Source: an uncultured Thermococci archaeon (GTDB lineage: Archaea > Methanobacteriota_B > Thermococci > Methanofastidiosales > Methanofastidiosaceae). Taken from it: DNA of 64,000 nucleotides. The stretch is from positions 77,075 to 141,074 of the forward strand of contig CAZCMP010000005.1 of the NCBI GenBank assembly GCA_964500005.1, given 5' to 3'. The notes under the pieces are model-generated. The model was given only the letters and a program-made list of their open reading frames with translations, was not told the origin of the DNA and did no database searches. The translations under genes and the position numbers were made by a program. This document shows, piece by piece, positions 2,281 through 47,486 of this stretch (position 1 is its first letter; the number at the start of each line of letters is the position of its first letter).

Positions 2281-2295
2281 TATTGTGGTGTGTTT

Positions 2296-3618: not shown

Positions 3619-3772
3619 ATACTTACTTATCCAAGTAAATAAAAAGAAAATTAAAAAATATTTTCGTTCAATTTAAATAAAAATTCTTTTAATTTTACAA
3701 AAGGACTCGATTTATTCTCTTTTTTCAATTCAAAACGAAAATCTTATTTATTTGTTTTTACATAATTATATT

Positions 3773-6861: not shown

Positions 6862-6927
6862 GCATAGGCTGCATCCAACACATTTTTCTATATCTTTAAT
6901 TTGTAGTTGTTTTAATTTACCAACTCC

Positions 6928-8247: not shown

Positions 8248-8255
8248 TTTAACAC

Positions 8256-9224
8256 TTATTTTATTTTAATAATTTTATGAGGATATTCACTGATTTTAGA
8301 ATTGATCTCCTCTATATCCAAAAATTTATTTTTTGCACCCAAGTATTGAATTACAGATTCGGCTTCAGTTGCCCCATATTCTAAGGCAATTTTGATATTT
8401 TTAGATTTCATGAAACCTGTAAGAAATCCTGCACCAAAACTATCTCCCGCCCCAGTAGTTTCTTTTACATTTACCTCGTTTGGTATAATCATATGTCCTT
8501 CTTTGTTTGTAAATGTATAAGCTCCATGATCGCCATCAGTTATTATTGCTATTTCTGGCCCATAACTAAGTAAATTATCTGCCATAAGTCTTGGATCAGT
8601 ATGGCCAGTAATCATTTTGGCTTCTTCAAAATTTACGCAAACTATATTAGAATTGTTAAGTATTTTTTCAAACTTTTCTATTCCTTTTCTTATTAAATAA
8701 GAACTAGGATTATACATTATCCCAATATTATTTTCATTTGCATATTTTGATATTTTTATCTGGGTGTCTAGTGAATCTTCAAGCATTGTACAAAGATAAA
8801 ACCATTTGGTGTTTAATCTTGATAAGTTAATTTCATTAAATCTAAGTTTATCATTTTTATCTTTTAAGGTAAGGATTGTCCTGTCCCTTCCTTTCGCATC
8901 CAGAATTACAGAATAATCTGAGAGGCCTTCTTCTTGTATCAATAAAGATGTATCACATTGAATAGAGTTTAGATATTTCAATATTTTATCTGCATTGTGA
9001 TCATCGCCTATTTTTCCCAATAATGCAACTTTCAATCCAAATGTTGCAAATGCTCCAGCAGTATTTGTTCCGCCACCTCCAATTTCAAAATTCATTGATT
9101 TAACAAGGATCTTGCTCCCATATGGTACGGATAATTGTCCATCTTTAGTTATTCTAAATAGATCTTTTCCTGTGTCTACAAATAGATCTATAGTACAACT
9201 ACCCATGGTAATAACGTCATACAT
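8256..9224 (-). CDS. PfkB-family carbohydrate kinase, probable ATP-dependent 6-phosphofructokinase
   Basis: It has the GG dipeptide, GGGGTN and the C-terminal TGAGDSFGAGF anion hole. It sits between fba and pgi. A GGTGA SD precedes the ATG. Confidence 0.7.
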   Translation of the reverse strand: MYDVITMGSCTIDLFVDTGKDLFRITKDGQLSVPYGSKILVKSMNFEIGGGGTNTAGAFATFGLKVALLGKIGDDHNADKILKYLNSIQCDTSLLIQEEGLSDYSVILDAKGRDRTILTLKDKNDKLRFNEINLSRLNTKWFYLCTMLEDSLDTQIKISKYANENNIGIMYNPSSYLIRKGIEKFEKILNNSNIVCVNFEEAKMITGHTDPRLMADNLLSYGPEIAIITDGDHGAYTFTNKEGHMIIPNEVNVKETTGAGDSFGAGFLTGFMKSKNIKIALEYGATEAESVIQYLGAKNKFLDIEEINSKISEYPHKIIKIK

Positions 9225-9228
9225 TTTT

Positions 9229-10119
9229 TCACCTTGGGTATTCTTTCATGATGTCTCTAATTTTCTCATTGATTTTCCAGGAATCTTCTCTACTTCTTTG
9301 CCAAATATTTCTTCCAAAAATTATTCCAGTGGCGCCAGCTTCCATGGAAAGTTTAACTTTATTTAAAAGATCTTCATCTCCTAGTTTTGATCCTCCAGAT
9401 ACGAGAACCATCGTATTGCCTGCAGACTTTACTACTTTTTTAATAGCTTCTTCTGGAGACAAATCTAGTTGATTATATGGTTCCGGATACAAATCCATTT
9501 TCGAATTGTCGATAATAGGAAAATTAATCTTTATAATATCTGCGCCCAATTCACACCCTACACGCGCAGCATAGTCTACAGCGTATAGAGATTCTTTTCC
9601 TCCCTTTGCTTCAATGGCCTTTCCTCTTGGATAAGACCAAACTATTATTGGCAGCCCATATCTATCTGCTTCTCTTTTTACTTTTCTAAATTGTTCAATA
9701 TCTTCCTTTTGATTGGGAGTCCCAACATATAAAGTATATCCAACGGCATCTGCACCTAGTCTAATAGCATCTTCTAAACTAGCGGTCAATGGAGAAACTG
9801 GAGCATCGTCTTCTGGTATTGAAGTTTTTCCGTTTAATTTTAAAACTAGAGGTATGATGCCCGCATATTTTTTCATATATTTTTCTGCAAGTCCAATATG
9901 CATTACAATGCCTGATACTCCAAGACTTATAGCCAGATTTAGAACGTATTCAGGATCCAGACTTCCGGGATTTGAAAAGAAGTCTCGTGGCCCATGTTCT
10001 AAACCATGATCAATGGGCAATAGATTCAATGTTCCATTTCTTAATCCATGGCTGTATAATAATCTATACAATCTAACTCTTTTTCCTAAAGCTAGGTCCA
10101 AATTACTTAAAATATCCAT
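9229..10119 (-). CDS. fba: class I fructose-bisphosphate aldolase (archaeal DhnA/FbaB type)
   Basis: Motifs LPIDHGLEHGP and GADAVGYTLYVG...IIKINFP match the archaeal class IA aldolase. The track start at 10140 is TTG. The ATG at 10119 follows GGAGGT. Confidence 0.8.
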   Translation of the reverse strand: MDILSNLDLALGKRVRLYRLLYSHGLRNGTLNLLPIDHGLEHGPRDFFSNPGSLDPEYVLNLAISLGVSGIVMHIGLAEKYMKKYAGIIPLVLKLNGKTSIPEDDAPVSPLTASLEDAIRLGADAVGYTLYVGTPNQKEDIEQFRKVKREADRYGLPIIVWSYPRGKAIEAKGGKESLYAVDYAARVGCELGADIIKINFPIIDNSKMDLYPEPYNQLDLSPEEAIKKVVKSAGNTMVLVSGGSKLGDEDLLNKVKLSMEAGATGIIFGRNIWQRSREDSWKINEKIRDIMKEYPR

Positions 10120-10248
10120 ATTTTTTACCTCCATTATCAAAAATATAACAAAAATAGCGTCTAAACTATCATTGAGATAAAAATATGAATCTATTGCCCA
10201 AACTACTCAATAATTTTTCTTTTTATCTAATATAACTCTTTCGGTAAA

Positions 10249-11337
10249 TTACAAGGAGTTTACAATTGAGTAGAATGCAGCCCCATATAAACTAACGTTA
10301 TAGTCAAGGATTAAATATACTGGGATAGACTTAAGAACTGCTTTTTGAGTCTGACAATAAATAAATTCATCTGAAAACTCTTTACTTTCAATTAGCCCCT
10401 TATTTTTCATTGCTATACCTCCTGCGATATACACACCCCCCAATGCAAGAGAATCTAAAGCAAAATTTTTTGCGCATCTGCCATAAAACATGCCAAATAG
10501 TCTAAAAGTTTCTCTGCATTTTAGATCTATATTTCTGTATTTTGATATGGCGGGAGGTTTATCCATAGATCTTTCTATTATTTCATCGTATTTTGTTTTT
10601 CCATAATTTCCAGTATTTTTTAAGAATGAGTATATACTCTCTATGCCCTGCCCAGACAATATATCCTCGTATCTTAAGGGGCCTTGAAGATTCTTTTTTT
10701 CTTTTATATAATTAATTAATTCAAATTCAAAAATATCTTTAATAGGAAAATCCGAATGTCCCCCTTCACTAGGAAGGGACTCATATATGCCGTTATGGTT
10801 GTTGAAATAAAGTATTGACTTTCCAAGCCCCGTTCCTGCACCGATAATTGCTTTAGTTTTTTCAAGAGTTTTCTCATTAATTCCTGGCCTAATAACCAAA
10901 ATATCTGCTGGCCGATATTTAATAAGATAATTTATTCCGTAACCTATTGCCTGGAAATCATTTATTATATGGACTATATCTAAACCGGTTTCTTTTTTAA
11001 TTTCATTTATATTGATTTTCCAATTTAAATTTGTTAAATTTATTATATTTTCTTTAATATTCACTCCAGCACATCCAAAACATGAAACTTTAATCTCTAT
11101 AGCATGATTATTTTTAGCAAATTTCAGCATTTCTTTTATAGGATGTATAATTGAGTTAAGTTTTTTGCTATTATAGCGCTTAAAAAACATCAAATAGGGA
11201 ATATTTTCACTTATACCACAAATTCCTATAGTAGTATTGGTCCCTCCAATGTCCGCAACAAGAACATATTTAGAATATAAAAGATTGTTATTTGAAACAT
11301 ATTCTATCTCTATTTCATTTACCAAATGAACACCCAA
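10249..11337 (-). CDS. glk: glucokinase (Glk family)
   Basis: Motifs VADIGGTNT, IINDF, GAGTGLG and EGGH are collinear with E. coli Glk. The start is uncertain, either TTG at 11337 or 11325. Confidence 0.75.
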   Translation of the reverse strand: MGVHLVNEIEIEYVSNNNLLYSKYVLVADIGGTNTTIGICGISENIPYLMFFKRYNSKKLNSIIHPIKEMLKFAKNNHAIEIKVSCFGCAGVNIKENIINLTNLNWKININEIKKETGLDIVHIINDFQAIGYGINYLIKYRPADILVIRPGINEKTLEKTKAIIGAGTGLGKSILYFNNHNGIYESLPSEGGHSDFPIKDIFEFELINYIKEKKNLQGPLRYEDILSGQGIESIYSFLKNTGNYGKTKYDEIIERSMDKPPAISKYRNIDLKCRETFRLFGMFYGRCAKNFALDSLALGGVYIAGGIAMKNKGLIESKEFSDEFIYCQTQKAVLKSIPVYLILDYNVSLYGAAFYSIVNSL

Positions 11338-11448
11338 AAAGTCTCTATATTTATTATCATTATATATTAATTTTTATGTTTAAATAGATTAGTAATTTCA
11401 TAATTAATAATTTAAACTAAAAGCCCGTATAATAAATGACTTGGTAAA

Positions 11449-13647
11449 ATGAAAAGATTATTAATAGTTTCAAACAGACTGCCTATTACCATAGAAAAGA
11501 ATAATGAGGGCTTAAATTTTAAGCACAGCGTGGGGGGTCTTGCTACAGGACTTGCATCATTCTATAAAAACTATGATAGCACTTGGATAGGCTGGTGTGG
11601 GCTTTCTTCAGACAAAATAAATATCGATGAAAATAAATATATAAAGTCAAAGTTATTGGAAGAATATCAAAATTACCCAGTTTTTTTATCAAAAAAAGAT
11701 ATTGAACTATATTACAATGGATTTTGTAATAGTACTTTATGGCCACTTTTTCATGGATTCACACAGTATACCGAATATATAAAAAAGAATTGGGAGACTT
11801 ATAAAAGCGTAAACGAGAAGTTCTGTGAAGCCGTATGTGAAATTGCAAATAATGGGGATATAATCTGGATTCATGATTATCATTTAATGCTACTTCCAAA
11901 ACTAATTAGAGAAAAATTGCCCCATACTTCAATAGGATTCTTCTTACATATTCCATTCCCTTCTTTTGAGATCTATAGGCTACTGCCATGGAGAAGAGAT
12001 ATCCTTGAAGGGATTCTTGAAGCTGATTTGATTGGGTTTCATATATCTGATTATTCAAGGCATTTCTTATCAGGAGTATTAAGGATATTGGGATTTGAAA
12101 ACGTTGCAGGTAAAGTCTTCACGGGGAAACATTATTCTGAAGTCGATGCATTTCCTATGGGGATAGAGTATGATAAATTTTCAAGTATGGTAAAAGATGA
12201 AAATGTTCAAAAAAAAATAAATGAGATACGGGAGAAAATAGGGGAATATAAAACTATTTTTTCGATAGATAGGCTTGATTATACAAAAGGAATTCTCCAA
12301 AGACTTGAGGCATATGACTATTTTCTCGATAAGTATCCTACTTATAGGGGAAAGGTCGAATTAATTCTTGTAACAGTCCCATCAAGAACTAAAGTTGAGC
12401 ATTATGAAAAACTTAAAAACAAGATTGATGAATATGTTGGAAAAATAAATGGAAAATATGGAAGAGTAAACTGGACGCCAATTAGATATCTATATCGTTA
12501 TATCTCATATTATTCTCTTCTTTCATTGTACAATCTTTCTGATGTAGGATTGATAACCCCCATAAGAGATGGTATGAATTTAATTGCCAAGGAGTTAATA
12601 GCTTCAAAAAATGATGGAAAGGGAGTGCTTATCCTTAGTGAAATGGCCGGTGCTTCAGTTGAACTTGGAGAGGCATTGATAGTTAATCCAAACAATGCAG
12701 AAGAAATTGCAGATGCAATTAAAAAAGGATTGGAAATGCCAATAGATGAACAGATTGAAAGAAATAGAATCATGCAAAAAAGATTAAAAAAATATAATGT
12801 GACAAGATGGGCAGAAGATTTTATAGAAAAACTTGAAGAAGTAAAAAATGAACAGAAAACACTTGAAGTAAAACTTATTCTACCTTCAACTAAAATTGGC
12901 ATGATAAATAGATACAAAAAAAGTGAAAATCGTTTATTCTTGCTCGATTATGATGGAACTTTAGTTCCATTTTCAAATGCACCCCATAAAGCATTACCGG
13001 ATAATGAATTAATTTCTATTCTAAAAAATCTATCAAATGATCCTAAAAATAATGTTGTCATAATAAGTGGGCGCGATAAAAATACTCTTGAGAATTGGTT
13101 TAAAGGTGTCAATTTAAGTATTATAGCTGAGCATGGTGGGCAAATTAAGGAAAAAGGAAGCAATTGGATTTTAACTAAACCAGAGGAAGTAGAATGGAAA
13201 GGAAGAATCTTGCCTTTATTAGAACTGTATGTTGATAGAACGCCGGGATCATTAATCGAAAGTAAGGAACTTTCTCTTGTTTGGCACTATAGAAAAGTAG
13301 ATCCAGAGTTAGCAGCTATACGGTCTAAAGAACTAAAAGCAGCTTTAATGCACCTAACTTCTAATCTAAATGTGGGAGTTTTTGAAGGTAATAAAATTAT
13401 TGAAGTTAAGAATATAAATATAAATAAAGGACATGCGACTTCAAACTGGCTTAATAAAAATAAATGGGATTTTATAGTTACAATTGGAGACGATTTCACA
13501 GATGAAGATATCTTCAAAGTAGTTCCAGAAAATGCATATTCAATAAAGGTAGGTATTGAGCCTTCTCAAGCCAAGTACAATGTTGAATCGTACAAAGAAG
13601 TTAGGATATTACTAAAAGAATTAACCTCTGTAGAATCAAATGATTAG
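11449..13647 (+). CDS. bifunctional trehalose-6-phosphate synthase (GT20) / trehalose-6-phosphate phosphatase (HAD)
   Basis: The N-terminus LIVSNRLP...GGLATGL and GFFLHIPFP are OtsA-like. The C-terminus LFLLDYDGTL and GDDFTDE is an OtsB-like HAD domain. Confidence 0.85.
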   Translation: MKRLLIVSNRLPITIEKNNEGLNFKHSVGGLATGLASFYKNYDSTWIGWCGLSSDKINIDENKYIKSKLLEEYQNYPVFLSKKDIELYYNGFCNSTLWPLFHGFTQYTEYIKKNWETYKSVNEKFCEAVCEIANNGDIIWIHDYHLMLLPKLIREKLPHTSIGFFLHIPFPSFEIYRLLPWRRDILEGILEADLIGFHISDYSRHFLSGVLRILGFENVAGKVFTGKHYSEVDAFPMGIEYDKFSSMVKDENVQKKINEIREKIGEYKTIFSIDRLDYTKGILQRLEAYDYFLDKYPTYRGKVELILVTVPSRTKVEHYEKLKNKIDEYVGKINGKYGRVNWTPIRYLYRYISYYSLLSLYNLSDVGLITPIRDGMNLIAKELIASKNDGKGVLILSEMAGASVELGEALIVNPNNAEEIADAIKKGLEMPIDEQIERNRIMQKRLKKYNVTRWAEDFIEKLEEVKNEQKTLEVKLILPSTKIGMINRYKKSENRLFLLDYDGTLVPFSNAPHKALPDNELISILKNLSNDPKNNVVIISGRDKNTLENWFKGVNLSIIAEHGGQIKEKGSNWILTKPEEVEWKGRILPLLELYVDRTPGSLIESKELSLVWHYRKVDPELAAIRSKELKAALMHLTSNLNVGVFEGNKIIEVKNININKGHATSNWLNKNKWDFIVTIGDDFTDEDIFKVVPENAYSIKVGIEPSQAKYNVESYKEVRILLKELTSVESND

Positions 13648-19095: not shown

Positions 19096-20145
19096 TCAAT
19101 TAACGTTGCAGCCTTCTAGATCTGGGTGATTTTTGCATCTGTTGTTTCTTAGTATTGAAAGGAATTTATTCATTGGAAGTGTAGTTGGACAGCCAGTGTT
19201 ACCTCTTGCATTAAGTTTTGGGTCTCCGATAAAGTAACTGTCGTTAGGATCGTCGTATATGTCTATGTCCTTTCCGTTGTTGCAGAACTGATTGTAGTAC
19301 ACTTTTGTCCCTGTTGGATTTCCGTCTGCATGGACAAAGTTATGATCATGGCGTTCCTGTATACCGAATTTTGGATTATTCCTGATAATATTGTTTCTAA
19401 TTAATGTATTTGTTACTATCCCACCGATTTCAATTCCTCTATCCACTGATTTTTCGATTATGTTATTTTCAACTAGAACATCGGAGATTTCTCCATTGCC
19501 CCATGTAACTATGCTTATTCCGATATCGCCCCCACCGAGAATATGATTGTCTTTAATAAGAATGTTTTTCGCTTTTGAATTCCAAGTTACGCCCATTATT
19601 CCGGCGCTATCCCAGCCTTCCTTATAAGGTCCTCCTTCTACTATGTTTCCGATAACTTTTGAATCATTTCCTGCAACTTGAATTCCAACACGAAGATGGT
19701 TAGGTACTTTTATTTTGTTATTTAGTATATTGCAAGTTGTTCCTTCTCCACTGCCCGTTCCCTGAATAATTCCAAAAGATTCAGGCGATGTGCTGGATAA
19801 AATAATAGTAAAGCCTTCCACAGTTATCGTCCCTAGATTCTTACCATCAATATTGATTACCCTATAGCTTGTAACGCTTGTGCCAGGTCCGATTATTGTT
19901 GAATCTCTTCCCCCTACAGATTTTAATGTAATATTTGATTTATTTATCACGACGTTTTCATTATAAGTACCTGGATATACGAGTATGGTGTCACCGGCAG
20001 CTGCTGCAGTGATTGCATCTCCGATCGTTGTATATGTTTTTCCAGCTCCCACTTCACGAGTAGTAGCTGCACTTACTGGATCAATAATAGCCAATATAGA
20101 AACAACTAATAAAATTCCTATAATTATCGATTTTATTTTTTTCAT
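19096..20145 (-). CDS. secreted right-handed parallel beta-helix (pectate-lyase/NosD-like) repeat protein
   Basis: It has a signal peptide MKKIKSIIIGILLVVSILAIIDPVSA. It has beta-helix repeats with N/G/I ladders. The N-terminal TILVYPGTYNENVVI motif is shared with 25720-27084. Confidence 0.75.
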   Translation of the reverse strand: MKKIKSIIIGILLVVSILAIIDPVSAATTREVGAGKTYTTIGDAITAAAAGDTILVYPGTYNENVVINKSNITLKSVGGRDSTIIGPGTSVTSYRVINIDGKNLGTITVEGFTIILSSTSPESFGIIQGTGSGEGTTCNILNNKIKVPNHLRVGIQVAGNDSKVIGNIVEGGPYKEGWDSAGIMGVTWNSKAKNILIKDNHILGGGDIGISIVTWGNGEISDVLVENNIIEKSVDRGIEIGGIVTNTLIRNNIIRNNPKFGIQERHDHNFVHADGNPTGTKVYYNQFCNNGKDIDIYDDPNDSYFIGDPKLNARGNTGCPTTLPMNKFLSILRNNRCKNHPDLEGCNVN

Positions 20146-20319: not shown

Positions 20320-20640
20320 TATTGGATAATAATTGTAATAATTTTATAATTATATATGTTACAACATATATATTGTTGCATCTTGAGATTTTTAGAAAAA
20401 AATGCAGAAAAAAAATTGAGCGATGGGGGAAATTTTAATTGAGTTTTGGAAAAAATAGAGGGATAAAATGGTCTAAAGCGGCTGTGCTGGAACAGTATCG
20501 CCTATGATATATGTTGAGTAATCCGAGCCGATTTAAGGCGGAAAAGGAAGGGAAAAGCTCCGATTATTTAACCGATTATGGCGGGGGTAAACGGGTTAAA
20601 AAGAGAGGGAAAAAAGGAAATATTTTAAAATAAAATATAT
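20320..20640. repeat. right arm of the ~300-bp inverted repeat (partner 15341-15641)
   Basis: Its reverse complement aligns with 15341-15641. It also contains an ATAATTGTAATAATTTTA box at 20329-20346. Confidence 0.7.
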
Positions 20641-21866
20641 TATCCGGTGTAACCAAGTTCTCTCGCCCTGTCGAAACACTGTTGAGCTTCAGAGTATCTT
20701 CCTAAGTCCTGAAGTGTTCGCCCTTTGTTATTCCATGCGAGGGCATAGTTAGGGTCTATTGCAATAGCTTTGTCATAGGAAATTAAGGCTTCAGAGTTTT
20801 TTCCAAGGTTTCTGAGTGCTACTCCCCTATTGTTCCATGCTTGTTTATAGTCGGGATCTATTGCAAGCGCTTTATCGTATGAGATTATGGCTTCAGAAGG
20901 CCTTCCAAGGTTTCTGAGTGCTATCCCTCTGCCATACCATGCTTCTTTGATGTTTGGATCCAATGATATCGCCTTGTCGTAGACTTGTAGTGCTTCTGTG
21001 TACCTTTCAAGAAGTCTAAGTGCGGCCCCCTTACCGACCCATGCAAGGGCATAGTTTGAATCTATAGAAATCGCTTTATCAAAATTAGTTATGGCTTCAG
21101 AGTGCCTATCTAGCTCATTGTATGCATATCCCCTCCAATACCATGCTTCTTTGATGTTTGGATCTATAGAAATCGCTTTGTTATAAGATTGTATTGCTTC
21201 AGGATACCTTTCAAGATCTATGAGAGCTTTTCCTTTATTTGTCCATGCATCCTTAAAGTTTGAATCCATAGAAATAGCCTTATCAAAGCAAGTTATGGCT
21301 TCAGAATATTTCTTTTGTCCTTGAAGTAAAATCCCCTTGCCATTCCAGGAATTAACTAGGTATTTCTTAGTTTCTTTGTAATCAGGATCAAGCTCCATAA
21401 CTTTCTCAAAATTTTTTATTGCTTCATCATATTTTGCTTGATCATAAAAAGACACGCCTTCGTTGTATAACTTTTCAGCTTCAGATGCGCCTGGAAATAA
21501 AATAAGGGCGGCTACCAAAATAATAACTACTCCAATGCCCCCTATTGCAATTATCTTTTTTTTGCCTTTAGGCGTGGGAGATTCCTGATAATTTTTTGCT
21601 TCGGCTTTAGGGGGTTCCATTGTTTTTTCAAAAGGAGTCCCACATTGCCCACAAACCTGATCAGACAATGCCATTTTAGATCCACAGTTTTGACATATCT
21701 TACCCTCTGCTTCTACCTTTGTGCCACAAGATGGACAAAAGAGAGAGCCTCTAGGAAAAGAACTATTACATTTACTGCATTTATTTTCGTCCATTATATC
21801 CCATTTAGCCATATTATTTAGCATATATAAGGGTATGGAAAATAAAATAAATATTCTTTCATGCAT
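20640..21866 (-). CDS. double zinc-ribbon / TM / TPR-repeat protein
   Basis: The N-terminus has CxxC...CxxC x2. It has one TM helix and about 8 TPR repeats (AW..KG.AL..L.RY.EA...YDKAI.IDPN). The C-terminus is ELGYTG. It is a paralog of 38103-38837. Confidence 0.8.
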   Translation of the reverse strand: MHERIFILFSIPLYMLNNMAKWDIMDENKCSKCNSSFPRGSLFCPSCGTKVEAEGKICQNCGSKMALSDQVCGQCGTPFEKTMEPPKAEAKNYQESPTPKGKKKIIAIGGIGVVIILVAALILFPGASEAEKLYNEGVSFYDQAKYDEAIKNFEKVMELDPDYKETKKYLVNSWNGKGILLQGQKKYSEAITCFDKAISMDSNFKDAWTNKGKALIDLERYPEAIQSYNKAISIDPNIKEAWYWRGYAYNELDRHSEAITNFDKAISIDSNYALAWVGKGAALRLLERYTEALQVYDKAISLDPNIKEAWYGRGIALRNLGRPSEAIISYDKALAIDPDYKQAWNNRGVALRNLGKNSEALISYDKAIAIDPNYALAWNNKGRTLQDLGRYSEAQQCFDRARELGYTG

Positions 21867-23418: not shown

Positions 23419-24339
23419 TTAATCTTCCTGATTTTCCTTTAGGATTTTTAATATCTGTGCAATTGGAAGTGAAGGTTTATTTCCTGCTTTTGCCAATCTG
23501 CTTGGATTCCAATTTATTATCTGATTAATTTCTTGGAGGTCGTATTTCATTTTGGCATCTTTATAGTTGTATAGGTCTTGTGCAAGTGCTATGGCATCAT
23601 TGTTGTTAAATGCCATCCCTCCAAAGTGCATTAGGACGACAGTCTGCCCCGGATTAACGGTGACATTCTCCCAACTGTAATTAATATACCCGCTTTCATC
23701 AGAGAACTCCCACAGCGAATCTATTCTGTCAGAACCACCAGGCCCATCCCATACATGAGAAAGAGAAGGGTCATGTGTACCATCGCCATTATCAGTAAGC
23801 TGGTCATACGATACTGCCCAGTAATCGTTTACATCTGCTAATGCATCGCCACTTGAAGTTTTAACAACTCGATTGTTAGAGTCAGAGCCAAAATTTGAAT
23901 ATATCCGCACACCAACTGATATAGGGGATTCTGTGGGATTGTAAAGTATCTCTAAATACCTTACCCAGTTCCGATCTTCAGGGAAGTAAACCTTGCGCCT
24001 AACAATCAGATTAGACATAGTATAATCATCCAAAAAGTATTCTCTGCCATCTGCTTCTGTAGTGTAGTTCTCGCTATCATCGTTATTGTACTGTGGATAA
24101 TCCTTTGGATTTCCGATTCCAACATAAAGGCGGAAAGCATGTTCGTCATATGCATCACGTAAGGATCCATCCTTGCTGTGTGCATCATTAATATGTCCAA
24201 ATTTCGTATCAAAATCATCAAAAATGAAGTCCATAACATCTACGTCAAATTTATCGCCGAAAACAGACGCAATCCCAAACGTACTTACTATAAATAGAAA
24301 GCTTATCAATATCGCCATTATTTTCTTCATAATAATCAC
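23419..24339 (-). CDS. secreted hypothetical protein with conserved C-terminal ILKILKENQED tail
   Basis: It has a signal peptide. There are no recognisable domains. The C-terminal 16 aa are shared with 25720-27084. Confidence 0.55.
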   Translation of the reverse strand: MIIMKKIMAILISFLFIVSTFGIASVFGDKFDVDVMDFIFDDFDTKFGHINDAHSKDGSLRDAYDEHAFRLYVGIGNPKDYPQYNNDDSENYTTEADGREYFLDDYTMSNLIVRRKVYFPEDRNWVRYLEILYNPTESPISVGVRIYSNFGSDSNNRVVKTSSGDALADVNDYWAVSYDQLTDNGDGTHDPSLSHVWDGPGGSDRIDSLWEFSDESGYINYSWENVTVNPGQTVVLMHFGGMAFNNNDAIALAQDLYNYKDAKMKYDLQEINQIINWNPSRLAKAGNKPSLPIAQILKILKENQED

Positions 24340-24428: not shown

Positions 24429-24626
24429 TTATTTCTTGTTAGCCCACTTCTTGGCTGCTTTTGTGGGGAAAAGAGTTGCAAATACAGTTTGTTGCCATTT
24501 AAGAAATTTATCGATGCAATCTAAACATATGTCTACGCTATGAGATTCATCAATTTTCAATTGATTAAATTTTGGATCATATCTCTCGATTTCTTTCCTA
24601 CATAATATGCAATCCATTGTAATCAC
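24429..24626 (-). CDS. small CxxC...CxxC zinc-finger protein
   Basis: The 65-aa product has CILC...CLDC. Confidence 0.35.
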   Translation of the reverse strand: MITMDCILCRKEIERYDPKFNQLKIDESHSVDICLDCIDKFLKWQQTVFATLFPTKAAKKWANKK

Positions 24627-24660: not shown

Positions 24661-25599
24661 TCATTTTTTATATGCAACGTAAATATCTGCTTCTATCATT
24701 TTGTTATCTTTATAGAAGTGGTGGGTAAAATAGACATTTCCATCAACATCTATAGAAGCCTCCCCTGCGAGAGGTGAGATTATAAGCTCAGGTTCTGTCC
24801 ACTCCCCATTGATCCACTTTGACCTCCAAAGGCCATAGTCTCTACTAATCCACAATTCCTTTCCATCTGGGGAAATAACGGGCCACCCTTCGTCTCTTGC
24901 AGTGTTGACATTTGTAACGTTTTTTGGCTCAGACCATTCACCTTTGGAATCTTTTTCCATTACCCAGATGTCTAATCCCCCCTTTCCACCTGCCCTGGCT
25001 GAATGGAAATACAACTCATCGCCGTAGAAGTGTAGCTCCCCAACTTCATAACTTTCAGGGAAATTGACTTTCAGCCAGTTTTTCCATTTATTGGTCGATG
25101 GGTCAAATTCAGCCGTGAACCAATTCATACCTGGGTACCCCTCTCTTGCAGAACAGAAAAACATTGTATTATCCTTAACAAAGCTGCACCCGTCTAAGGC
25201 CAGTTTTCTAGGATCCTGTAATATAATTCTTTCAGGCTTGCTCCACGTATCTCCAGATTTATGTGAAACGTATATACCAGTTACTCCATCGATAAGTTGT
25301 TTTTCAACGGGTATGTTGACATCAGGGGTAAACCAAAAATAGAGAGTTTTTCCGTCTGGTAGTATAAAAGCAGAATCTTCACCACCTCTAGTATTAATCG
25401 GGTATGGCAAGGGAACTGGATCATAATAGTCTAAAGAGTAAGATTTTGGAGGATTCGAATCTGTTTCAGGCGTGACCTTTATTGCATTTGGCGGGATTTT
25501 GCTTTCCCTGTCAATTAGTTCAATCTCTTTAGTTGCACAGCCCATTACGGAGATCAACAGTAAAATCCCCAATAATAGGACAATTATCTTTTTATTCAT
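24661..25599 (-). CDS. putative lipoprotein with TolB-like PD40 beta-propeller repeats
   Basis: It has a signal plus lipobox-like LLISVMGC. Repeated DGK(T/E)L(Y/W)F-type PD40 motifs are present. The likely start is MNKK at 25599. Confidence 0.55.
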   Translation of the reverse strand: MNKKIIVLLLGILLLISVMGCATKEIELIDRESKIPPNAIKVTPETDSNPPKSYSLDYYDPVPLPYPINTRGGEDSAFILPDGKTLYFWFTPDVNIPVEKQLIDGVTGIYVSHKSGDTWSKPERIILQDPRKLALDGCSFVKDNTMFFCSAREGYPGMNWFTAEFDPSTNKWKNWLKVNFPESYEVGELHFYGDELYFHSARAGGKGGLDIWVMEKDSKGEWSEPKNVTNVNTARDEGWPVISPDGKELWISRDYGLWRSKWINGEWTEPELIISPLAGEASIDVDGNVYFTHHFYKDNKMIEADIYVAYKK

Positions 25600-25719
25600 A
25601 TCTGCGCCCATTTTAACTTATTTTCAAGAGATATAAGTTTACCGGGAAAAGAAAAAAATAAAATCATGAAAATTGTTTTCAATAGTACTAAGTTATCTAA
25701 AAAAAAGTTTAAAATAAAT

Positions 25720-27084
25720 TTATTTTTCTTCGTTTTCCTTTAGGATCTTAATTATCTTATCCACCGGGAGATATTGAGTCTCTGAGCCACCTATAGATGG
25801 GTAGTGGTACCCCATATCTACAGTTCCTCTATCAAATACCCCTTTGACATTTGTCGTAAAACCTGTTGAAAGACTAAGGTTTTTAGCTAAGTCAGAACCA
25901 CTGTCAACACAAGGGCTCAAATTAGAGAGGTAGAATTCCCCTAAGGGCCCTTTGGTGAAAATTGGATCTACAGATATGCATCCTTCACCAGGCTCTACCC
26001 CTCCAAATGCTTGTCCCCAGTTGTCCTTGTTGTTCCAGGAATTAGAATATATAATTGAGTTGAAAAATAATAAGGGGGGTACCCATATGCCGTAAACGGG
26101 TGTTAGGTCATCGCTAGCAGTATTACTGCTTACTATGCAATTTTCAACTGTTATGCCAACACCTATGGCAGAAATTCCATAAACTGATCTTCCGTCAGTA
26201 TAAATATTATTGATGGAATTATTACTAACGGTACAATTGATAATTAAACTGTTTTCCGTTAGATAAGGATTATCCACGTCAAGATTAATACCTTCCAAAT
26301 AAGTTCCCCTTAGGAGCTTATTTCCGCTGATTGAAATATTTTTTATTAAAAAAGGGCTTTTGCCCGCAAGATATACGCCAATTAAGGCCTCCCCATTTTC
26401 TAAAGTGTTATTGTTGACCGTTCCATTTTTTATTGTCCAATTGTTGCCACCCCCAACTACAGGCCTAAATGTAGAAGTAATTTTAAACAAATTTCTGTCA
26501 AATTCAAACCCATCTATCAACCAGTTATTTCCATAGCCTGAAATACCAATAATACGGATTCCATTATAAAAAATATTATCACTCATAGAAACGTTTTTTA
26601 CTGACCAATTGTCTCCTATTCCAAGTATACAAGAAAGATCTCCAGACACAGGAATGACGTCTGTCGTGAGGTCGAATTTACAGTTTTCTATTGTTACATT
26701 GCTTCCCTTAAAGGTAATACCATATAACTGAAAATTTCTTAAACCAAGATTTTTGATTGTTATATCGTTTAGAATCTTATTTGTATAATCATAATTACCT
26801 ATACAAATATCAGATCCTCCTCTACAATCAATTATGGTGTTTAAAGGGTCATCCCCTATTATGGTGACATTTGGATTATTGATTTCGATCCCATTTGGGT
26901 ATGTGCTAATGTCATATGTTCCATAGTGTACATAGACTGTATCCCCCGGTTCTGCTGCACCTATCTTGGCTACAATGTCGTCCCCTGGGTAAACATGTAT
27001 ATTTCCAGCAGAAACTGGATTCAAAAAGATAAGAAAAGCGCCTAAAATAATAAAGACCGTTATAATACTTGATACTTTTTTCAT
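25720..27084 (-). CDS. secreted right-handed parallel beta-helix repeat protein with C-terminal IIKILKENEEK tail
   Basis: It has a signal peptide MKKVSSIITVFIILGAFLIFLNPVSA. It has extensive beta-helix repeats (NN..NN.I....G). It is a paralog-like of 19096-20145. Confidence 0.75.
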   Translation of the reverse strand: MKKVSSIITVFIILGAFLIFLNPVSAGNIHVYPGDDIVAKIGAAEPGDTVYVHYGTYDISTYPNGIEINNPNVTIIGDDPLNTIIDCRGGSDICIGNYDYTNKILNDITIKNLGLRNFQLYGITFKGSNVTIENCKFDLTTDVIPVSGDLSCILGIGDNWSVKNVSMSDNIFYNGIRIIGISGYGNNWLIDGFEFDRNLFKITSTFRPVVGGGNNWTIKNGTVNNNTLENGEALIGVYLAGKSPFLIKNISISGNKLLRGTYLEGINLDVDNPYLTENSLIINCTVSNNSINNIYTDGRSVYGISAIGVGITVENCIVSSNTASDDLTPVYGIWVPPLLFFNSIIYSNSWNNKDNWGQAFGGVEPGEGCISVDPIFTKGPLGEFYLSNLSPCVDSGSDLAKNLSLSTGFTTNVKGVFDRGTVDMGYHYPSIGGSETQYLPVDKIIKILKENEEK

Positions 27085-27176
27085 GAAAAACACCATTATA
27101 ATTGTAAAAATAGATAATCATTAATATTTAAATATTTGCTTAAGTTGAAAAGTAAAATAATTTTGAAAATAAAAAA

Positions 27177-27636: not shown

Positions 27637-28956
27637 TTATGAGACAACAAAGTCTATTGTGGCAGTGTCAAATACGCCACTTGGCGAGTATGCGACCATT
27701 GTAACCTTGTATGTGCCTGAAGGAACGTTTGAACCCAATGTGAATAATGCAGAGTATGCGCCTATGTTGTGTGCCTTTAGCTTTTGTGTTTCCGGTACAG
27801 TTTGAACTGTGACGCCTTCTGGAAGCCCGTCAAATCTTAACCTTGTGTCGTTTTGTGTAAAGAACCCTCTGTTCTCTACCTGTAGGAACACCTGTTGGCT
27901 ACCGGGGGACATTTCAAATGATGATATGATCTTACCATCTTGGATTACAGTTTCCCCTCCTGGGACTGAGAATGTCTCAATGTCTACCTTTGGGTAGAGT
28001 ATTGTGGCAGGGAGCGATGGATTCGGTTTGCAGTCGTAGCAGCATTTCTGCTCAAGTGAGAATAATAATCGACCTTTTCCCTCGATTGTGATTGTCCTTG
28101 GAACGCCTTGAATCATGACAACATCAGGCATTTGGTCAAAAGGCCTCTCACCATTGTACCAGACAACCATGTGTGGGTAATTATTGGCTAGTACTGCAAA
28201 GCTTCGGACTTCACATGTAGGAAGGCTTAATGGTACGCCGTTTATCACAATTTCTCCACATCCAGCAAATAGCATAATCACATACTCGTTGACATCACAT
28301 TTGTAGTTTGCAGGCATGTTGTATCCGCTGCAATTTGTTGCACATTCAAGTGAAGGGTTGCTTCCACACCCCCTCATGTCAAAGCAACAGCTATTTATCA
28401 GCTTTCTATCCTCTGAACTAAAATCCCCTTCGCCAGCACACGGTGGAGGCTCATTAAAGAATGTTCTGGAGTCGTTGCATGATGGAACATTGATAACCAA
28501 TGATTTAATTTCTGCTCCACCCACATATTCAAAGTATGATTGTTTACCATATAGATAACATTCAGAGCTTTCACAACTTTCAAGGCATTGATTAAAAAAT
28601 GGCATATCGCCACAAGATTCATAGCAGTAAGCTAAGCATGACTGTGTGGATTTTGGCATATTTACACATAATAGATCCCTTGCATAGCATCCTTTCACAT
28701 TGCTAATGTATATCTCCATCCAGTAAGGATGGAACCATCTTTGTTGGCACTCAAAAAAAGCATTGTATGAGCAGTCATCACATGGATCATATTGGTCAAC
28801 TGTTTGAGGTTGAGAACACGACTTCATGCAATCATTGAAGATGCATTCTTGACATCCCGAAGGAAGAGTATCTTCGCATGGTTCTTGTGAACTTGCAATA
28901 GAAAAACTTGCTATTCCCATAAGGAAAACTATAGTTAAAGCTAATATTTTTTTCAT
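27637..28956 (-). CDS. cysteine-rich secreted protein with C-terminal Ig-like/CARDB-like beta-sandwich domain (paralog A)
   Basis: It has a signal peptide MKKILALTIVFLMGIASFSIASS. More than 40 Cys lie in the N-terminal two-thirds. The C-terminal ~170 aa are ~95% identical to 45926-47329. Confidence 0.75.
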   Translation of the reverse strand: MKKILALTIVFLMGIASFSIASSQEPCEDTLPSGCQECIFNDCMKSCSQPQTVDQYDPCDDCSYNAFFECQQRWFHPYWMEIYISNVKGCYARDLLCVNMPKSTQSCLAYCYESCGDMPFFNQCLESCESSECYLYGKQSYFEYVGGAEIKSLVINVPSCNDSRTFFNEPPPCAGEGDFSSEDRKLINSCCFDMRGCGSNPSLECATNCSGYNMPANYKCDVNEYVIMLFAGCGEIVINGVPLSLPTCEVRSFAVLANNYPHMVVWYNGERPFDQMPDVVMIQGVPRTITIEGKGRLLFSLEQKCCYDCKPNPSLPATILYPKVDIETFSVPGGETVIQDGKIISSFEMSPGSQQVFLQVENRGFFTQNDTRLRFDGLPEGVTVQTVPETQKLKAHNIGAYSALFTLGSNVPSGTYKVTMVAYSPSGVFDTATIDFVVS

Positions 28957-30439: not shown

Positions 30440-31855
30440 CTATGTTCCACAATAAGTCTTGTATCCAACTTCTGACTCAGGCGGTTGTTGAAACTCTTTA
30501 TTGACATTTTTATAGTCATAAGGCTTTTTTAGAGCTTTAAGTAACCTTTCAAACTCTGTTTTGTCCCTTATTGCTTTTTCAACATGATGATTTCTGGGTA
30601 TTAGGGCAGGATTAGTCTTCTGCATTACCTTCTGAGTTTTTGAGGGATTTTGTTTTTCAATTCTTTTTTTCCACCTAATAAGCCAATCCCTTCCTTGATC
30701 TTCGGTAAAAGGATCTTTATTATTAGAGAGCTTGAAAAAAGTATTGGTGTAATCCATTTTGTATTTCTTCATTAAATCAAGAAGTTCTTTGATTAGTTGT
30801 ACATCCCCCTCCTGTTTTGAGAGAAGACCCAATTTTTTACTCATCATTTTGATATATGCATTTTGAAACTTTTCATCAAAACTTTCTATAATCTTCTCTG
30901 CAATTTTAATGGATTTTTCTTCATTTTCATGAATTAGGGGAAGGAGTGCTTCAGCTAATTTTACAATGTTCCATTTTATGATATTGGCTTGGTTTCCAAA
31001 TGAATATCTGCCTTGTTTATCTATTGAGCTATAAACAGTTTTCTCATCATATGAATTCATAAATGCGCATGGCCCATAATCTATTGTCTCTCCAGCTATA
31101 CTTGTATTGTCCGTATTCATAACACCATGAATGAAGCCGACCCGAAGCCATTCTACTATTAGTTTTATTTGCTTTTCAATGACTTTTTTTAGTAATGCTT
31201 GTGCGGGATAATTGGATTTTTTTAATTCGGGGTAATGCCTTTCTATTGTATACTTAAGCAATTGCTTGAGTTGTTTTATTTCCAAAAGGGATGCATACTC
31301 AAAAGTGCCTATTCGTATATGGCTTTCGGCTATTCGTGTCAGTACTGCTCCTGATTGCTCTGCTTGCCTGTATACTTTGTCCTTAGTTTCGATAACGCAC
31401 AAACTTCTTGTAGTTGGTATTTTCAAATAATGCATCGCCTCACTTATCAGGTATTCTCTAAGCATTGCTTGAAGTGTTGCACGTCCGTCACCCCCTCTAC
31501 TATAGGGTGTCCTCCCCGAGCCTTTTAGCTGTATATCGTACAGTTTATCTTTGAACAGAATTTCACCTAAAATAATTGCCCTGCCATCTCCAAGTACAGT
31601 AAAATAGCCAAATTGATGGCCGGCATATGCCTGGGCAAAAGGCTTTGTATTTGGGATTATCCTGTTTCCTGAAAAGTAATCTACAATCTCCTTTTCATTC
31701 AAATTAATCTTGAGTTTTTTAGCCAACTCCTTATTGTAATAAAAAATGCTTGGTTCCTTTACAGGTAGCGGATCCTGTAGCGTGTAAAAAATTTCGTCAA
31801 GATTAAGATAAGTTTTATCTAATTTGATGTTATACTCAGTATTTCCATTATCCAT
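30440..31855 (-). CDS. selO: protein adenylyltransferase SelO (YdiU/UPF0061)
   Basis: Motifs YAGHQFG, LGDGRAIILGE, LKGSGRTPYSRGGDGRA, EYLISEAMHYLKIPTTR and HGVMNTDN are present. Confidence 0.85.
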   Translation of the reverse strand: MDNGNTEYNIKLDKTYLNLDEIFYTLQDPLPVKEPSIFYYNKELAKKLKINLNEKEIVDYFSGNRIIPNTKPFAQAYAGHQFGYFTVLGDGRAIILGEILFKDKLYDIQLKGSGRTPYSRGGDGRATLQAMLREYLISEAMHYLKIPTTRSLCVIETKDKVYRQAEQSGAVLTRIAESHIRIGTFEYASLLEIKQLKQLLKYTIERHYPELKKSNYPAQALLKKVIEKQIKLIVEWLRVGFIHGVMNTDNTSIAGETIDYGPCAFMNSYDEKTVYSSIDKQGRYSFGNQANIIKWNIVKLAEALLPLIHENEEKSIKIAEKIIESFDEKFQNAYIKMMSKKLGLLSKQEGDVQLIKELLDLMKKYKMDYTNTFFKLSNNKDPFTEDQGRDWLIRWKKRIEKQNPSKTQKVMQKTNPALIPRNHHVEKAIRDKTEFERLLKALKKPYDYKNVNKEFQQPPESEVGYKTYCGT

Positions 31856-47329: not shown

Positions 47330-47486
47330 ATTTTTCACTATCCGGATAGTGACTACTAATGTAGTCTAATTTTACTGAGATTTAGACTATTTATCTCTTT
47401 TGGTATATCTAACAAAATTTTAGGAAGTTAGCGATAGAAAAATTAGATATAATTATAAACTTCAACTGAACGGATAATATGTTAAA

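Follow-up and report, generated by a model that had tools for sequence, protein, structure and literature searches.

Why do two unrelated exported proteins, encoded close together in one archaeal genome, end in almost the same peptide? The DNA analysed here, a 64,000-nucleotide stretch referred to as the window, comes from Candidatus Methanofastidiosum, and two of its exported proteins terminate in LPIAQILKILKENQED and LPVDKIIKILKENEEK. What they share is a modular C-terminal tag, specific to the exoproteins of the Methanofastidiosum lineage, and it matches no catalogued sorting signal. Most likely, we infer, it holds exported proteins at the cell surface.

Tail genes in the window

The first protein (306 aa) is encoded by the open reading frame (ORF) 23419-24339 on the minus strand and ends in ...KPSLPIAQILKILKENQED before the stop codon. 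Its class-1 tail, LPIAQILKILKENQED, occupies 23419..23469 (-) with the stop included. The ORF listing starts this gene at GTG 24339, the start taken over in the original prediction, whereas the likely start is ATG 24330 (MKKIMAILISFLFIVSTFGIASVFG; MKKIM...), which places the gene at 23419..24330 (-). The second protein is encoded by ORF 25720-27096 (-) and ends in ...TQYLPVDKIIKILKENEEK before the stop; LPVDKIIKILKENEEK, also a class-1 tail, lies with its stop at 25720..25770 (-). The predicted bounds of this gene, 25720..27084 (-), agree with the likely start, ATG 27084 (MKKVSS...), which is that of a 100%-identical database protein, P0104. Precomputed annotation labels P0104 as Pel9A-like_beta_helix.

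Both of these carriers are real, but the window also has a third that the original prediction did not list. ORF 19096-20145 (-) ends in ...TTLPMNKFLSILRNNRCKNHPDLEGCNVN before the stop, a longer variant of the tail. This class-3 tail, LPMNKFLSILRNNRCKNHPDLEGCNVN, spans 19096..19179 (-) with its stop and consists of the LP-helix core followed by a conserved C-x7-C loop. The gene (19096..20145, -) encodes an exported NosD/pectinesterase-like beta-helix protein, with a Pfam Beta_helix match of 24.9 bits, just under the cutoff. Its orthologue P0045 has the same tail.

The mature domains of the first two proteins are unrelated, as had been claimed from the sequence. Their bodies have no mutual BLASTP similarity at E<=1e-3, and AlphaFold2 gives them different folds: a beta-supersandwich for the 23419 protein and a right-handed beta-helix for the 25720 protein. 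The supersandwich protein belongs to a family without a name and has no Pfam or NCBIfam match; Foldseek aligns it to the GH94 N-terminal domain, the YidC P1 domain and mutarotase-like supersandwiches (E about 1e-7). Its orthologues are found only in Methanofastidiosum, and the tail is present in every full-length one. Among lineage homologues of the 25720-type beta-helix, 31 of 31 terminate in the tail.

Could the likeness be a chance resemblance, or a recent local duplication of the 3' end in two genes only? The genome is AT-rich and rich in Ile, Leu, Lys and Asn, so loose versions of the motif can occur by chance, and one loose internal match does lie in a cytoplasmic trehalose-phosphate synthase/phosphatase ORF (12994-13026). 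However, the pattern LP[IVM]xxI[ILMF]KILKxN, back-translated, has 2 matches in the window against 0.00 expected from 100 dinucleotide-preserving shuffles. The shared tail of the two secreted proteins is confirmed, and its distribution bears on the same question.

Distribution, position and selection

The core LP[IMV]xx[IF][ILM]K[IL][LI] terminates 140 pooled proteins, which represent 94 distinct genuine tails. The carriers fall into at least ten unrelated families, including Beta_helix/NosD, the PQQ_2, SBBP and FG-GAP propellers, Laminin_G_3 with DUF2341 (by Pfam) and the beta-supersandwich; several further carrier families have no model at all or no recognised fold. They occur across many Methanofastidiosum genomes and in metagenomes, and every carrier with a source name comes from the Methanofastidiosum lineage. 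The tail is retained in orthologues whose bodies are only 40% identical. Wherever the N-terminus of a carrier is complete, it has a Sec-type signal peptide (called by a simple heuristic and by eye) that ends in VSA, VFG or VYA and not in a lipobox. A C-terminal tag on otherwise unrelated secreted proteins, the central claim of the original prediction, is supported well beyond the window.

Estimates of tail number depend on the search. A strict DNA pattern gave 9 matches in genome_contigs and 7 in metagenome_contigs; it finds few copies per genome relative to a looser protein regex and so undercounts, the true density of tails being seen when the looser regex is applied to the locus sequences. 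Alignment of 44 aa against an index of 5.8 billion proteins supplied variants, mostly as short fragments because candidate selection favours short proteins.

Tails are 13-27 aa long, with 11-25 residues downstream of the LP. Per-position conservation over 97 pooled tail strings is 87 for L1, 94 for P2, 85 for I6, 90 for I9 and 83 for N13. The core is followed by one of three endings, which are exchanged between families: ...KxN[QK]E[DE] in class 1, ...GL[YG]xK[ED] in class 2 (for example LPMNWIMKKFGLG) and ...N[RK]CKNHPDxEGC in class 3. The class-3 extension, in the form N[RK]CKNHP[DE]xE[GD]C, terminates SBBP, PQQ, LamG and beta-helix proteins as well as small proteins. Between the end of the conserved core and the C-terminus there are 3 to 17 residues, and the final ones are variable.

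Of 24 motif matches in ORFs of at least 100 aa, 23 are no more than 17 residues away from the stop (P=4e-22), and the remaining one reflects stop-codon loss (TAA-to-GAA read-through). In two collection scans, each of the 16 lineage matches is in a long open frame and is separated from its stop by 2-4 residues, the 5' end of the frame being cut in some contigs. In other taxa, by comparison, none of the 26 DNA-pattern matches terminates an ORF of at least 100 aa, and their positions are random. The original prediction had named two observations that would speak against a tag, namely a tail limited to two locally duplicated 3' ends and a motif not confined to C-termini. The data give the opposite on both counts: 140 carriers from at least ten families in many genomes, with matches concentrated at the stop. 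Taken with the shuffles, the C-terminal position and the carrier pool refute chance or local duplication, whose probability we put at practically nil.

Codons in the tail vary freely, which places selection at the protein level. Six codons are used for Leu1 and three Ile codons at positions 3 and 9, and every conserved tail residue shows synonymous variation. A different explanation would be a DNA- or RNA-level element or concerted evolution, in which the 3' ends and the 5' signal-peptide regions are recombination arms or regulatory sequences and peptide conservation is secondary. Tail genes do occur in tandem arrays, and unrelated families have near-identical signal-peptide sequences in addition to tails. 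The DNA of the two window tails is also conserved, as originally noted, although the intervals first compared were one base off and only 8/26 identical; alignment from the stop codons gives 37/54 identical positions over the final 54 nt, including a 14-nt identical run. But this similarity ends at the stop codon, with the flanks of the aligned 3' ends at background identity (19/60 and 25/60), and the codons at conserved residues vary freely. Each family's own tail variant is kept across species, so the tails of one genome are not homogenised. We reject a DNA-level element on the codon evidence; it is largely refuted, and we hold it to be very improbable.

Physical properties and proposed role

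No transmembrane segment is present in the pooled tail strings, in agreement with the original prediction: no hydrophobic stretch is longer than 2 residues. The ends of class 1 are for the most part acidic or polar, many tails terminate in basic residues (KKNKNK), and net charge ranges from -1 to +4. The helical hydrophobic moment (muH) of class-1 and class-3 cores is 0.48-0.85, above most shuffles, and 8 of the 14 cores tested are in the top 5% of shuffles. Pro (0.09 vs 0.03) and Lys (0.09 vs 0.04) are over-represented in the linker before the tail. AlphaFold2 models a helix, IAQILKILK, at residues 292-300 of the 23419 protein, preceded by a linker and with pLDDT <50 over 277-305. In the 25720 protein, whose body has pLDDT mostly >85, the helix VDKIIKILKEN (residues 440-450) lies inside a segment of pLDDT <50 (374-453). 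The tail helix has no confident packing on the body in either model; the low pLDDT means that AlphaFold2 cannot place the tail, which is not proof that the tail is free. N-glycosylation at Asn13 was considered and rejected, as the tails have no Ser/Thr at +2.

Our preferred reading, held tentatively and with somewhat less than even confidence, is that the tail forms a helix which retains its carriers non-covalently at the envelope, by binding a putative partner common to all of them. The carrier would be exported by the Sec pathway and its N-terminal signal peptide cleaved by signal peptidase I. A short flexible linker rich in Pro, Lys, Ser and Gly would then join the folded domain to an amphipathic helix of 10-12 residues with a Leu-Pro cap. 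By its hydrophobic face, the helix would dock on a common envelope component, which would be a conserved envelope protein and not bare lipid. On a cell that lacks an outer membrane, docking would retain beta-helix, beta-propeller and lectin-like proteins, among others, that are otherwise soluble, and the endings of classes 1-3 would be interchangeable decorations behind a common docking core. The tag itself is shown, whereas its role in retention and a partner for it are what we infer. The poor calculated interfacial energy of class-1 tails would favour a protein partner, and the specific conservation of L1, P2, I6, I9 and N13 suggests recognition by a protein. A 10-residue helix would be a very small docking element, which speaks against retention.

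It is possible, if doubtful, that the system is more specialised. The Leu-Pro-capped helix of 10-13 residues might be a miniature dockerin that plugs dozens of exoproteins into one dedicated envelope receptor, for example a lipoprotein or an S-layer protein, in an undescribed surface-display system. The three endings might then specify sub-sites or regulation, and the CKNHPDxEGC loop might bind a metal or form a disulfide.

Instead of docking on a protein, the amphipathic helix could lie in the outer-leaflet interface as a direct in-plane membrane anchor and tether its carrier beneath the S-layer with no partner. The core is amphipathic and sits at the extreme C-terminus behind a short flexible linker, and lipobox proteins, which are already anchored, lack the tail. 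Class-2 tails, which combine Trp/Phe with Lys, have favourable summed Wimley-White interfacial energies (-1.8 to -2.0 kcal/mol), more favourable than the -0.6 kcal/mol calculated for the MinD targeting helix. These tails resemble generic membrane-targeting helices and fit membrane anchoring better than retention on a partner. The class-1 tails of the window, however, have unfavourable energies of +2.6 and +4.7 kcal/mol on the same scale. Net charge is about 0 and position 8 of the pooled tails is Lys or Glu, so a cationic face is not conserved. Lipid-binding helices usually conserve their character and not their sequence, whereas L1, P2, I9 and N13 are near-invariant here. We consider direct membrane anchoring unlikely.

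Another explanation is a processing signal: the LP-helix would be bound by a dedicated protease or transpeptidase, much as in sortase or archaeosortase systems although with no membrane-spanning segment. The enzyme would cut off the tail and might link the remaining protein covalently to a lipid, a glycan or part of the S-layer. A strictly C-terminal, lineage-restricted and sequence-specific motif on unrelated exoproteins is the hallmark that lay behind the discovery of sortase-type signals. The near-invariant Leu-Pro start, with Lys-Ser/Thr as the preceding residue pair in the pooled tails, is consistent with such recognition, and variability past the core (three classes) is expected of a discarded peptide. 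But the highly conserved class-3 CKNHPDxEGC loop would be odd in a discarded peptide, and the tail, with hydrophobic runs of at most two residues, lacks the architecture of motif, transmembrane helix and basic cluster that is common to the prokaryotic sortase-type signals described (bioRxiv 10.1101/2023.06.07.544157). A co-occurring protease or sortase-like gene, proposed originally as something to look for, did not emerge: within the roughly 200 kb of loci covered, tail genes have no recurrent neighbour that encodes a peptidase, sortase, archaeosortase, rhomboid or CPBP protein. An X-Pro-peptidase-like alpha/beta hydrolase at 39283-40314 was set aside as a generic hydrolase match only. Processing is, in our estimate, unlikely.

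Which neighbours could supply the partner that retention by docking would need? Tail genes form islands, with 3 genes in 8 kb of the window, 6 consecutive genes in locus L026, 8 in 13 kb in L050 and 5 in 12 kb in L052. The islands also contain lipobox proteins, and an S_layer_C gene lies 4 kb away in L050 (16879-18795). In the window, a PD40 (TolB-like) beta-propeller with a lipobox-like signal peptide (LLISVMGC) lies between two tail genes at 24661..25611 (-), followed by a 65-aa protein with C-x2-C...C-x2-C and no signal peptide at 24429..24626 (-). The four-gene block of tailed beta-helix, PD40, 62/65-aa Cys4 protein and tailed supersandwich is conserved in L036, where the orthologue of the Cys4 protein, the third block member, is at 9711-9899. 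In L023 a PD40 homologue is found near a PQQ-tail gene.

Also between tail genes, at 20640..21866 (-), is a protein with a zinc ribbon, one hydrophobic segment and eight TPR repeats, whose paralogues recur near tail genes. At 27637..28956 (-) lies the gene for an exported protein that is rich in Cys and has ...GVFDTATIDFVVS as its C-terminus, with a paralogue at 45926-47338 and no Pfam match. This family recurs in tail-gene clusters of other genomes, some members having a lipobox; tblastn places homologues at 8871-9884 and 11038-12201 in L050 and at 3082-3933 in L052, with a fragment in L023. Four neighbours recur, namely the TPR protein, the PD40 lipoprotein, DUF1801 and the 27637-type family, but recurrence is confounded by synteny and all four stay candidates. 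Proximity marks the PD40 lipoprotein, the 27637-type family, the TPR membrane protein and the S-layer protein as candidate partners. The zinc-ribbon/TPR protein was set aside as a PEX5-like receptor, as the distance from core to carboxylate is not fixed and TPR proteins are common.

The clustering also bears on an assembly role, in which the tails of different carriers would bundle together, Lys-rich helix against acidic end, into hetero-oligomeric surface complexes. Tandem clusters and conserved blocks suggest co-expression of carriers, and the amphipathic helix contains basic residues and is followed, in class 1, by an acidic end (ENQED). Against this, a helix of about two and a half turns is short, the last residues of many tails are basic and not acidic, and self-association alone cannot hold proteins on the cell. 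We regard this role as quite improbable.

Retention on the envelope, the reading that we prefer, agrees with the distribution of other anchors. Lipoboxes, as well as C-terminal transmembrane segments followed by basic tails, are other anchors found in the lineage, and the tail is never seen together with either, as alternative anchors would predict. A bacterial homologue of the supersandwich body, P0029, has a transmembrane segment and RRRR at its C-terminus, in the place that the tail takes in the lineage.

Surface retention of soluble exoproteins in archaea without an outer membrane is known for few lineages and involves lipoboxes, PGF-CTERM with ArtA, and transmembrane anchors. The catalogued short C-terminal sorting signals all combine a motif with a transmembrane segment and a basic cluster; a conserved tag that lacks the segment, on at least ten families in an uncultured class of methanogens, suggests a retention principle of another kind. 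If the tail does act as a miniature dockerin, it would represent a way of sorting or anchoring in archaea that requires neither a transmembrane segment nor a sortase-like enzyme. In practice, the tag allows the Methanofastidiosum surface proteome to be listed from sequence alone, and as a short peptide it is testable as a display tag. It could also become a new NCBIfam or Pfam model; its carriers now appear there as 'hypothetical' or as generic beta-helix or beta-propeller proteins.

Comparison with known systems

The tail has no Pfam model (E<=0.01) and no NCBIfam model (E<=10 and E<=1), which upholds the original impression that it matches no known tag, and our literature search on the motif strings and on Methanofastidiosum surface proteins found no mention of it. 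Its closest analogues in distribution are the sortase-type signals: LPXTG/sortase, PGF-CTERM and PEF-CTERM/archaeosortase, PEP-CTERM/exosortase, GlyGly-CTERM/rhombosortase and MYXO-CTERM/myxosortase. Both are short, lineage-restricted signatures at the extreme C-terminus of many unrelated proteins with signal peptides, and the tail, like LPXTG, starts with Leu-Pro. However, the tail lacks the transmembrane helix and the terminal basic cluster, and no cognate enzyme gene lies nearby in the loci examined, where an archaeosortase gene was likewise not found in about 200 kb. Its motif is LP[IMV][AD][QKW] and not LPXTG, PGF or PEP. Positions 4-5 are A/D and Q/K/W and never T-G in the 97 pooled strings, so the LPXTG pentapeptide is absent; Gram_pos_anchor and the NCBIfam LPXTG models do not match the tail, and the pooled strings contain no PGF or PEF signature.

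In-plane C-terminal helices are found in E. coli PBP5 and PBP6, at the outer leaflet of the cytoplasmic membrane, and in MinD, on its cytoplasmic side. With PBP5/PBP6, MinD and FtsA the tail shares a short terminal amphipathic helix after a flexible linker and the lack of a transmembrane segment, and class-2 tails (FMKILGLG, IMKKFGLG) are similar in composition to the MinD helix. Class-1 tails differ in being nearly neutral, with poor calculated interfacial affinity. The PBP5/6 and MinD helices belong to single proteins and are conserved in character, whereas the tail is conserved in sequence across at least ten families.

Encapsulin cargo-loading peptides, PTS1 and the TPR-bound EEVD follow the same logic, in which unrelated proteins reach one receptor through a short C-terminal peptide on a flexible linker. 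Those systems are cytoplasmic and act on proteins without signal peptides, whereas tail carriers have Sec-type ones. Recognition in PTS1/PEX5, EEVD/TPR and PDZ systems also requires a free carboxylate at a fixed distance, unlike the variable spacing of the tail core.

Dockerins, finally, differ from the tail in size and in having a known partner. A dockerin, which has a duplicated Ca-binding segment and is about 60-70 aa long, pairs with cohesin; the tail is far shorter and has no EF-hand-like repeats, and Dockerin_1 matches none of the tail carriers. Distant tail-less beta-helix homologues (P0133 and P0135) have dockerin-like C-terminal modules where the tail would stand (Dockerin_1 at 18-20 bits, below cutoff). 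The likeness to the dockerin-cohesin system lies in the arrangement: a C-terminal module on a linker, attached to unrelated secreted proteins, which in the dockerin case docks non-covalently to a common scaffold.

Carriers of the tail in the window

Two exported proteins encoded on the reverse strand end in the same short tail, as originally predicted, and a six-frame scan adds a third carrier that the prediction had overlooked. The 306-aa protein (ORF 23419-24339, minus strand) ends in ...NKPSLPIAQILKILKENQED and the beta-helix protein (25720-27096, minus strand) in ...ETQYLPVDKIIKILKENEEK, both class 1 tails. The third, a NosD-like beta-helix protein (19096-20145, minus strand), ends in ...TTLPMNKFLSILRNNRCKNHPDLEGCNVN, a class 3 tail; the classes are defined by what follows a shared core. 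AlphaFold2 folds the 306-aa protein as a beta-supersandwich (pTM 0.73), for which Foldseek finds GH94 N-terminal domains, the YidC P1 domain and mutarotase-like folds (E about 1e-7), and the 25720-27096 product as a right-handed beta-helix (pTM 0.76). The mature bodies of these two are unrelated, as had been claimed, with no mutual BLASTP match at 1e-3.

A degenerate DNA pattern for LP[IVM]xxI[ILMF]KILKxN matches the 64-kb window (33% G+C) exactly twice, at the two predicted sites, against 0 expected from 100 dinucleotide-preserving shuffles of the window. The DNA under both tails is conserved as proposed; the two intervals first given are one base out of register. With the stop codons as anchor, the last 54 nt of the two genes are identical at 37 positions, and identity in the 60 nt to either side falls to background (19/60 and 25/60). 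Three observations, all from sequence comparison, indicate that the constraint acts on the peptide. Codons vary at conserved residues (Leu1 by CTT, CTC, CTG, CTA, TTG and TTA; Ile3 and Ile9 by ATA, ATC and ATT; Lys by AAA and AAG), nucleotide similarity between the two window genes ends at the stop codon, and each family's own tail flavour persists across species. On these grounds we rejected a DNA or RNA element and gene conversion; that the conserved DNA is itself the functional element is highly improbable.

Elsewhere in the window, a sugar and trehalose cluster (982-13647) encodes phosphoglucomutase, a TreT-like trehalose synthase, a nucleotidyl transferase, aldehyde:ferredoxin oxidoreductase, PGI, a PfkB kinase, a DeoC/LacD aldolase, glucokinase and a fused trehalose-6-phosphate synthase/phosphatase. 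A loose internal motif match within the fused enzyme (12994-13026) looks like chance. A SelO-family protein adenylyltransferase homologue (30440-31855, minus strand) and a radical-SAM/SPASM protein (48599-50008, minus strand) are not tail-related.

A modular, lineage-restricted C-terminal tag

Every full-length orthologue of the 306-aa protein retains the tail, even at a body identity as low as 40% (consensus LP[IM]AQILKILKGNQE[DE]), and 31/31 lineage homologues of the beta-helix protein end in it. A database protein with an unrelated 266-aa body (P0032, ending KTLPIAQILKILKENQED) matched the 306-aa query through the tail alone. Searched against 1.84 billion representative proteins, a tail profile gave 27 matches at E<=1e-3, 26 of them genuine and all 26 C-terminal. 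Pooling all fetched sequences gave 143 regex matches and 97 distinct strings, or 140 proteins and 94 genuine tails once 3 false-positive strings are removed. The tail is a conserved module and not a local duplication: with 140 pooled proteins carrying it, a 3'-end duplication limited to two proteins fails as an explanation, and chance or local duplication is next to impossible. Pfam and BLAST place carriers among Beta_helix/NosD proteins, PQQ_2, SBBP and FG-GAP propellers, Laminin_G_3+DUF2341 proteins, supersandwiches, the 266-aa family, a PAIYGDIVVW-repeat family and small Cys-containing proteins of 130-170 aa. Judged heuristically and by visual inspection, all carriers whose N-terminus is complete have a Sec-type signal peptide ending VSA, VFG or VYA, and none has a lipobox.

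If distant bacterial relatives of its body are set aside, the 306-aa protein has homologues only in genomes and metagenomes of Candidatus Methanofastidiosum (WSA2/Arc I). Source names, available for members of 5 of the 10 carrier clusters looked up, are all Methanofastidiosum or Methanofastidiosa. A strict pattern, run over 185,579 species represented by one genome each, gave 35 stretches. Nine come from Methanofastidiosum-type MAGs, each with the motif ending 2-4 residues ahead of the stop codon that closes a long open frame; the remaining 26 are mostly bacterial, and not one terminates an ORF of at least 100 aa. The same pattern found 10 metagenomic stretches, of which seven are genuine, all C-terminal. 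The window and the lineage loci together give 167 ORFs of 100 aa or longer. Of the 24 motif matches in them, 23 are no more than 17 residues from the stop (binomial P=4e-22); in the 24th, a signal-peptide protein, the TAA stop reads GAA and translation continues into the terminator. The other possible objection, a motif also found away from C-termini, does not hold in these ORFs. The frame of the 24th match (locus L036, 13146-14069, plus strand) encodes a small tail-bearing protein (...SLPMQTIMKILGLGQQD) with GAA where relatives have TAA, and extends 116 codons through a T-rich terminator and then antisense to an alcohol dehydrogenase gene; either the allele has lost its stop or the assembly is wrong here. 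At locus L051 (10001-10138, plus strand), a 45-aa ORF flanked by purine-biosynthesis genes (P0041, ...TGTVDMGYHYASNWLGKRGLPIEFILKILKGNKNN) consists only of the beta-helix family's last conserved segment and the tail, and appears to be the remnant of a gene's 3' end.

The shared core is L1-P2-[IMV]3-[AD]4-[QKW]5-[IF]6-[LMI]7-K8-I9-[LVI]10, with L1 in 87, P2 in 94, I6 in 85, L7 in 81, K8 in 73, I9 in 90 and L10 in 78 of the 97 pooled strings. Class 1 continues K11-x-N13-[QK]-[ED]-x (72 strings, two of them false positives), class 2 G-L-[YGS]-x-K-[ED] or MKKFGLGNKE (12 strings, one a false positive), and class 3 x-x-N-[RK]-C-K-N-H-P-[DE]-x-E-[GD]-C-x-x (13 strings, with the window's third carrier). 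A single body family can bear different classes and the tail is therefore modular: SBBP propellers have class 1 (L026, 6018-6953), 2 (P0061) and 3 (P0055), PQQ propellers class 1 (P0058), 2 (P0054) and 3 (P0038), and supersandwiches class 1 and class 2 (P0013, P0017). Conservation of the class 3 extension, N[RK]CKNHP[DE]xE[GD]C (window 19099-19140, minus strand), is very strong among carriers that are otherwise unrelated (P0038, P0045, P0046, P0052, P0055, P0056), and nothing in NCBIfam or the literature searched resembles it. Its Cys-x7-Cys loop, which contains His, Asp and Glu, could be a metal-binding site or be closed by a disulfide.

Pro (0.09 vs 0.03) and Lys (0.09 vs 0.04) are enriched in the 14-residue stretch that precedes the tail. 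AlphaFold2 models a short helix over IAQILKILK in the 306-aa protein and VDKIIKILKEN in the beta-helix protein, each preceded by a segment of pLDDT <50 and placed against the body without confidence. Helical hydrophobic moments of class 1 and 3 cores (0.48-0.85) exceed most shuffles. Assembly by contacts between such tails is improbable. The hydrophobic run in every tail is too short to span a membrane, in agreement with the predicted lack of a transmembrane segment.

Envelope genes around the tail

Tail genes cluster, with three in 8 kb in the window, six consecutive genes at L026, eight in 13 kb at L050 and five in 12 kb at L052. The window (27096-23419, minus strand) and L036 (7218-10888) share a four-gene block that may form an operon encoding a single surface complex: a tailed beta-helix protein, a PD40 lipobox beta-propeller, a 62/65-aa Cys4 (CxxC...CxxC) protein that lacks a signal peptide, and a tailed supersandwich. 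The contig holding this L036 block (CAWDRB010000027.1, 684,875 bp, also L012) is recorded as 'uncultured delta proteobacterium'; because it carries a Methanofastidiosum-type block with orthologues of window genes at 66-92% identity, the bin is probably mislabelled or chimeric.

Lipobox proteins and an exported family also lie inside tail-gene clusters. Members of this family (window 27637-28956 and 45926-47338, both minus strand; L050 8871-9884 and 11038-12201; L052 3082-3933; L023 4666-4782) recur within clusters in four sources. Their N-terminal part is Cys-rich, and their C-terminal domain, which is conserved, ends ...PSGTYKVTM.AYS..G.FDT..I.F.V[PS]. Some have a lipobox, and none has a Pfam match; the family could be a partner of the tail or just one more envelope protein. 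Four kb from the eight-gene cluster, a 638-aa S_layer_C (PF05124) protein (L050 16879-18795, plus strand) has neither tail nor C-terminal transmembrane segment. Other surface proteins of the lineage end in a classical transmembrane segment and basic tail (L047 6688-8409). Since the lineage uses lipobox proteins and C-terminal transmembrane anchors as well, the three look like alternative devices.

Unrelated tail-bearing families also have near-identical signal peptides in common (MKKLYAI[IV]ISLLFVGSFFGIASVFG, MKKIVAILISFLFVGSFFGIASVFG, MKKIFAILTSLLFVVSVFGVASVVA; window 24330-24256, minus strand; L036 6728-7150, 10001-10888 and 16294-16686; L026 3755-4555; P0032), with 80% identity over 25 residues between the 306-aa and 266-aa families. 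These families may use signal peptides of a specialised class, or both of their ends may have been shuffled in exon-like fashion.

Possible role and comparison with known signals

We lean, with some doubt, towards non-covalent retention in the envelope: an amphipathic helix with a Leu-Pro cap, joined by a flexible linker, would persist on the mature protein and dock many unrelated Sec-exported proteins on a shared, putative envelope partner. In relatives, the equivalent position points to attachment, judging by P0029, a bacterial homologue of the supersandwich body that ends in a transmembrane segment and RRRR, and by two distant beta-helix homologues with sub-threshold dockerin-like modules at the end. 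A recognition signal for a processing enzyme is distinctly unlikely; in about 200 kb of inspected sequence, tail genes have no recurrent neighbour of the peptidase, sortase-like, archaeosortase, rhomboid or CPBP kind.

The tail could instead lie in the plane of the membrane as a direct anchor, which we consider unlikely. Its amphipathic helix is like that of PBP5- or MinD-type anchors, but of the summed Wimley-White energies, as estimated, only those of class 2 are favourable, those of the window's class 1 tails being unfavourable (+2.6 and +4.7 kcal/mol), and the near-invariant L1, P2, I9 and N13 are untypical of lipid-binding helices.

As first suggested, the tail fits no known tag: neither Pfam-A (E<=0.01) nor NCBIfam models (E<=1 to 10) cover any tail class, a full-text literature search for the motif strings gave no match, and literature searches on Methanofastidiosum surface or sorting signals turned up nothing relevant. 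Encapsulin cargo peptides differ in that tail carriers have signal peptides, and carboxylate-anchored peptide ligands in that the tail's distance to the C-terminus varies. Dockerins differ in size and have Ca-binding repeats, which the tail lacks. Unlike LPXTG, PGF/PEF-CTERM and related signals, the tail has no T-G, transmembrane helix or basic cluster. The original reading of a C-terminal tag on exported proteins holds as stated, and the tag's architecture departs from all catalogued examples.
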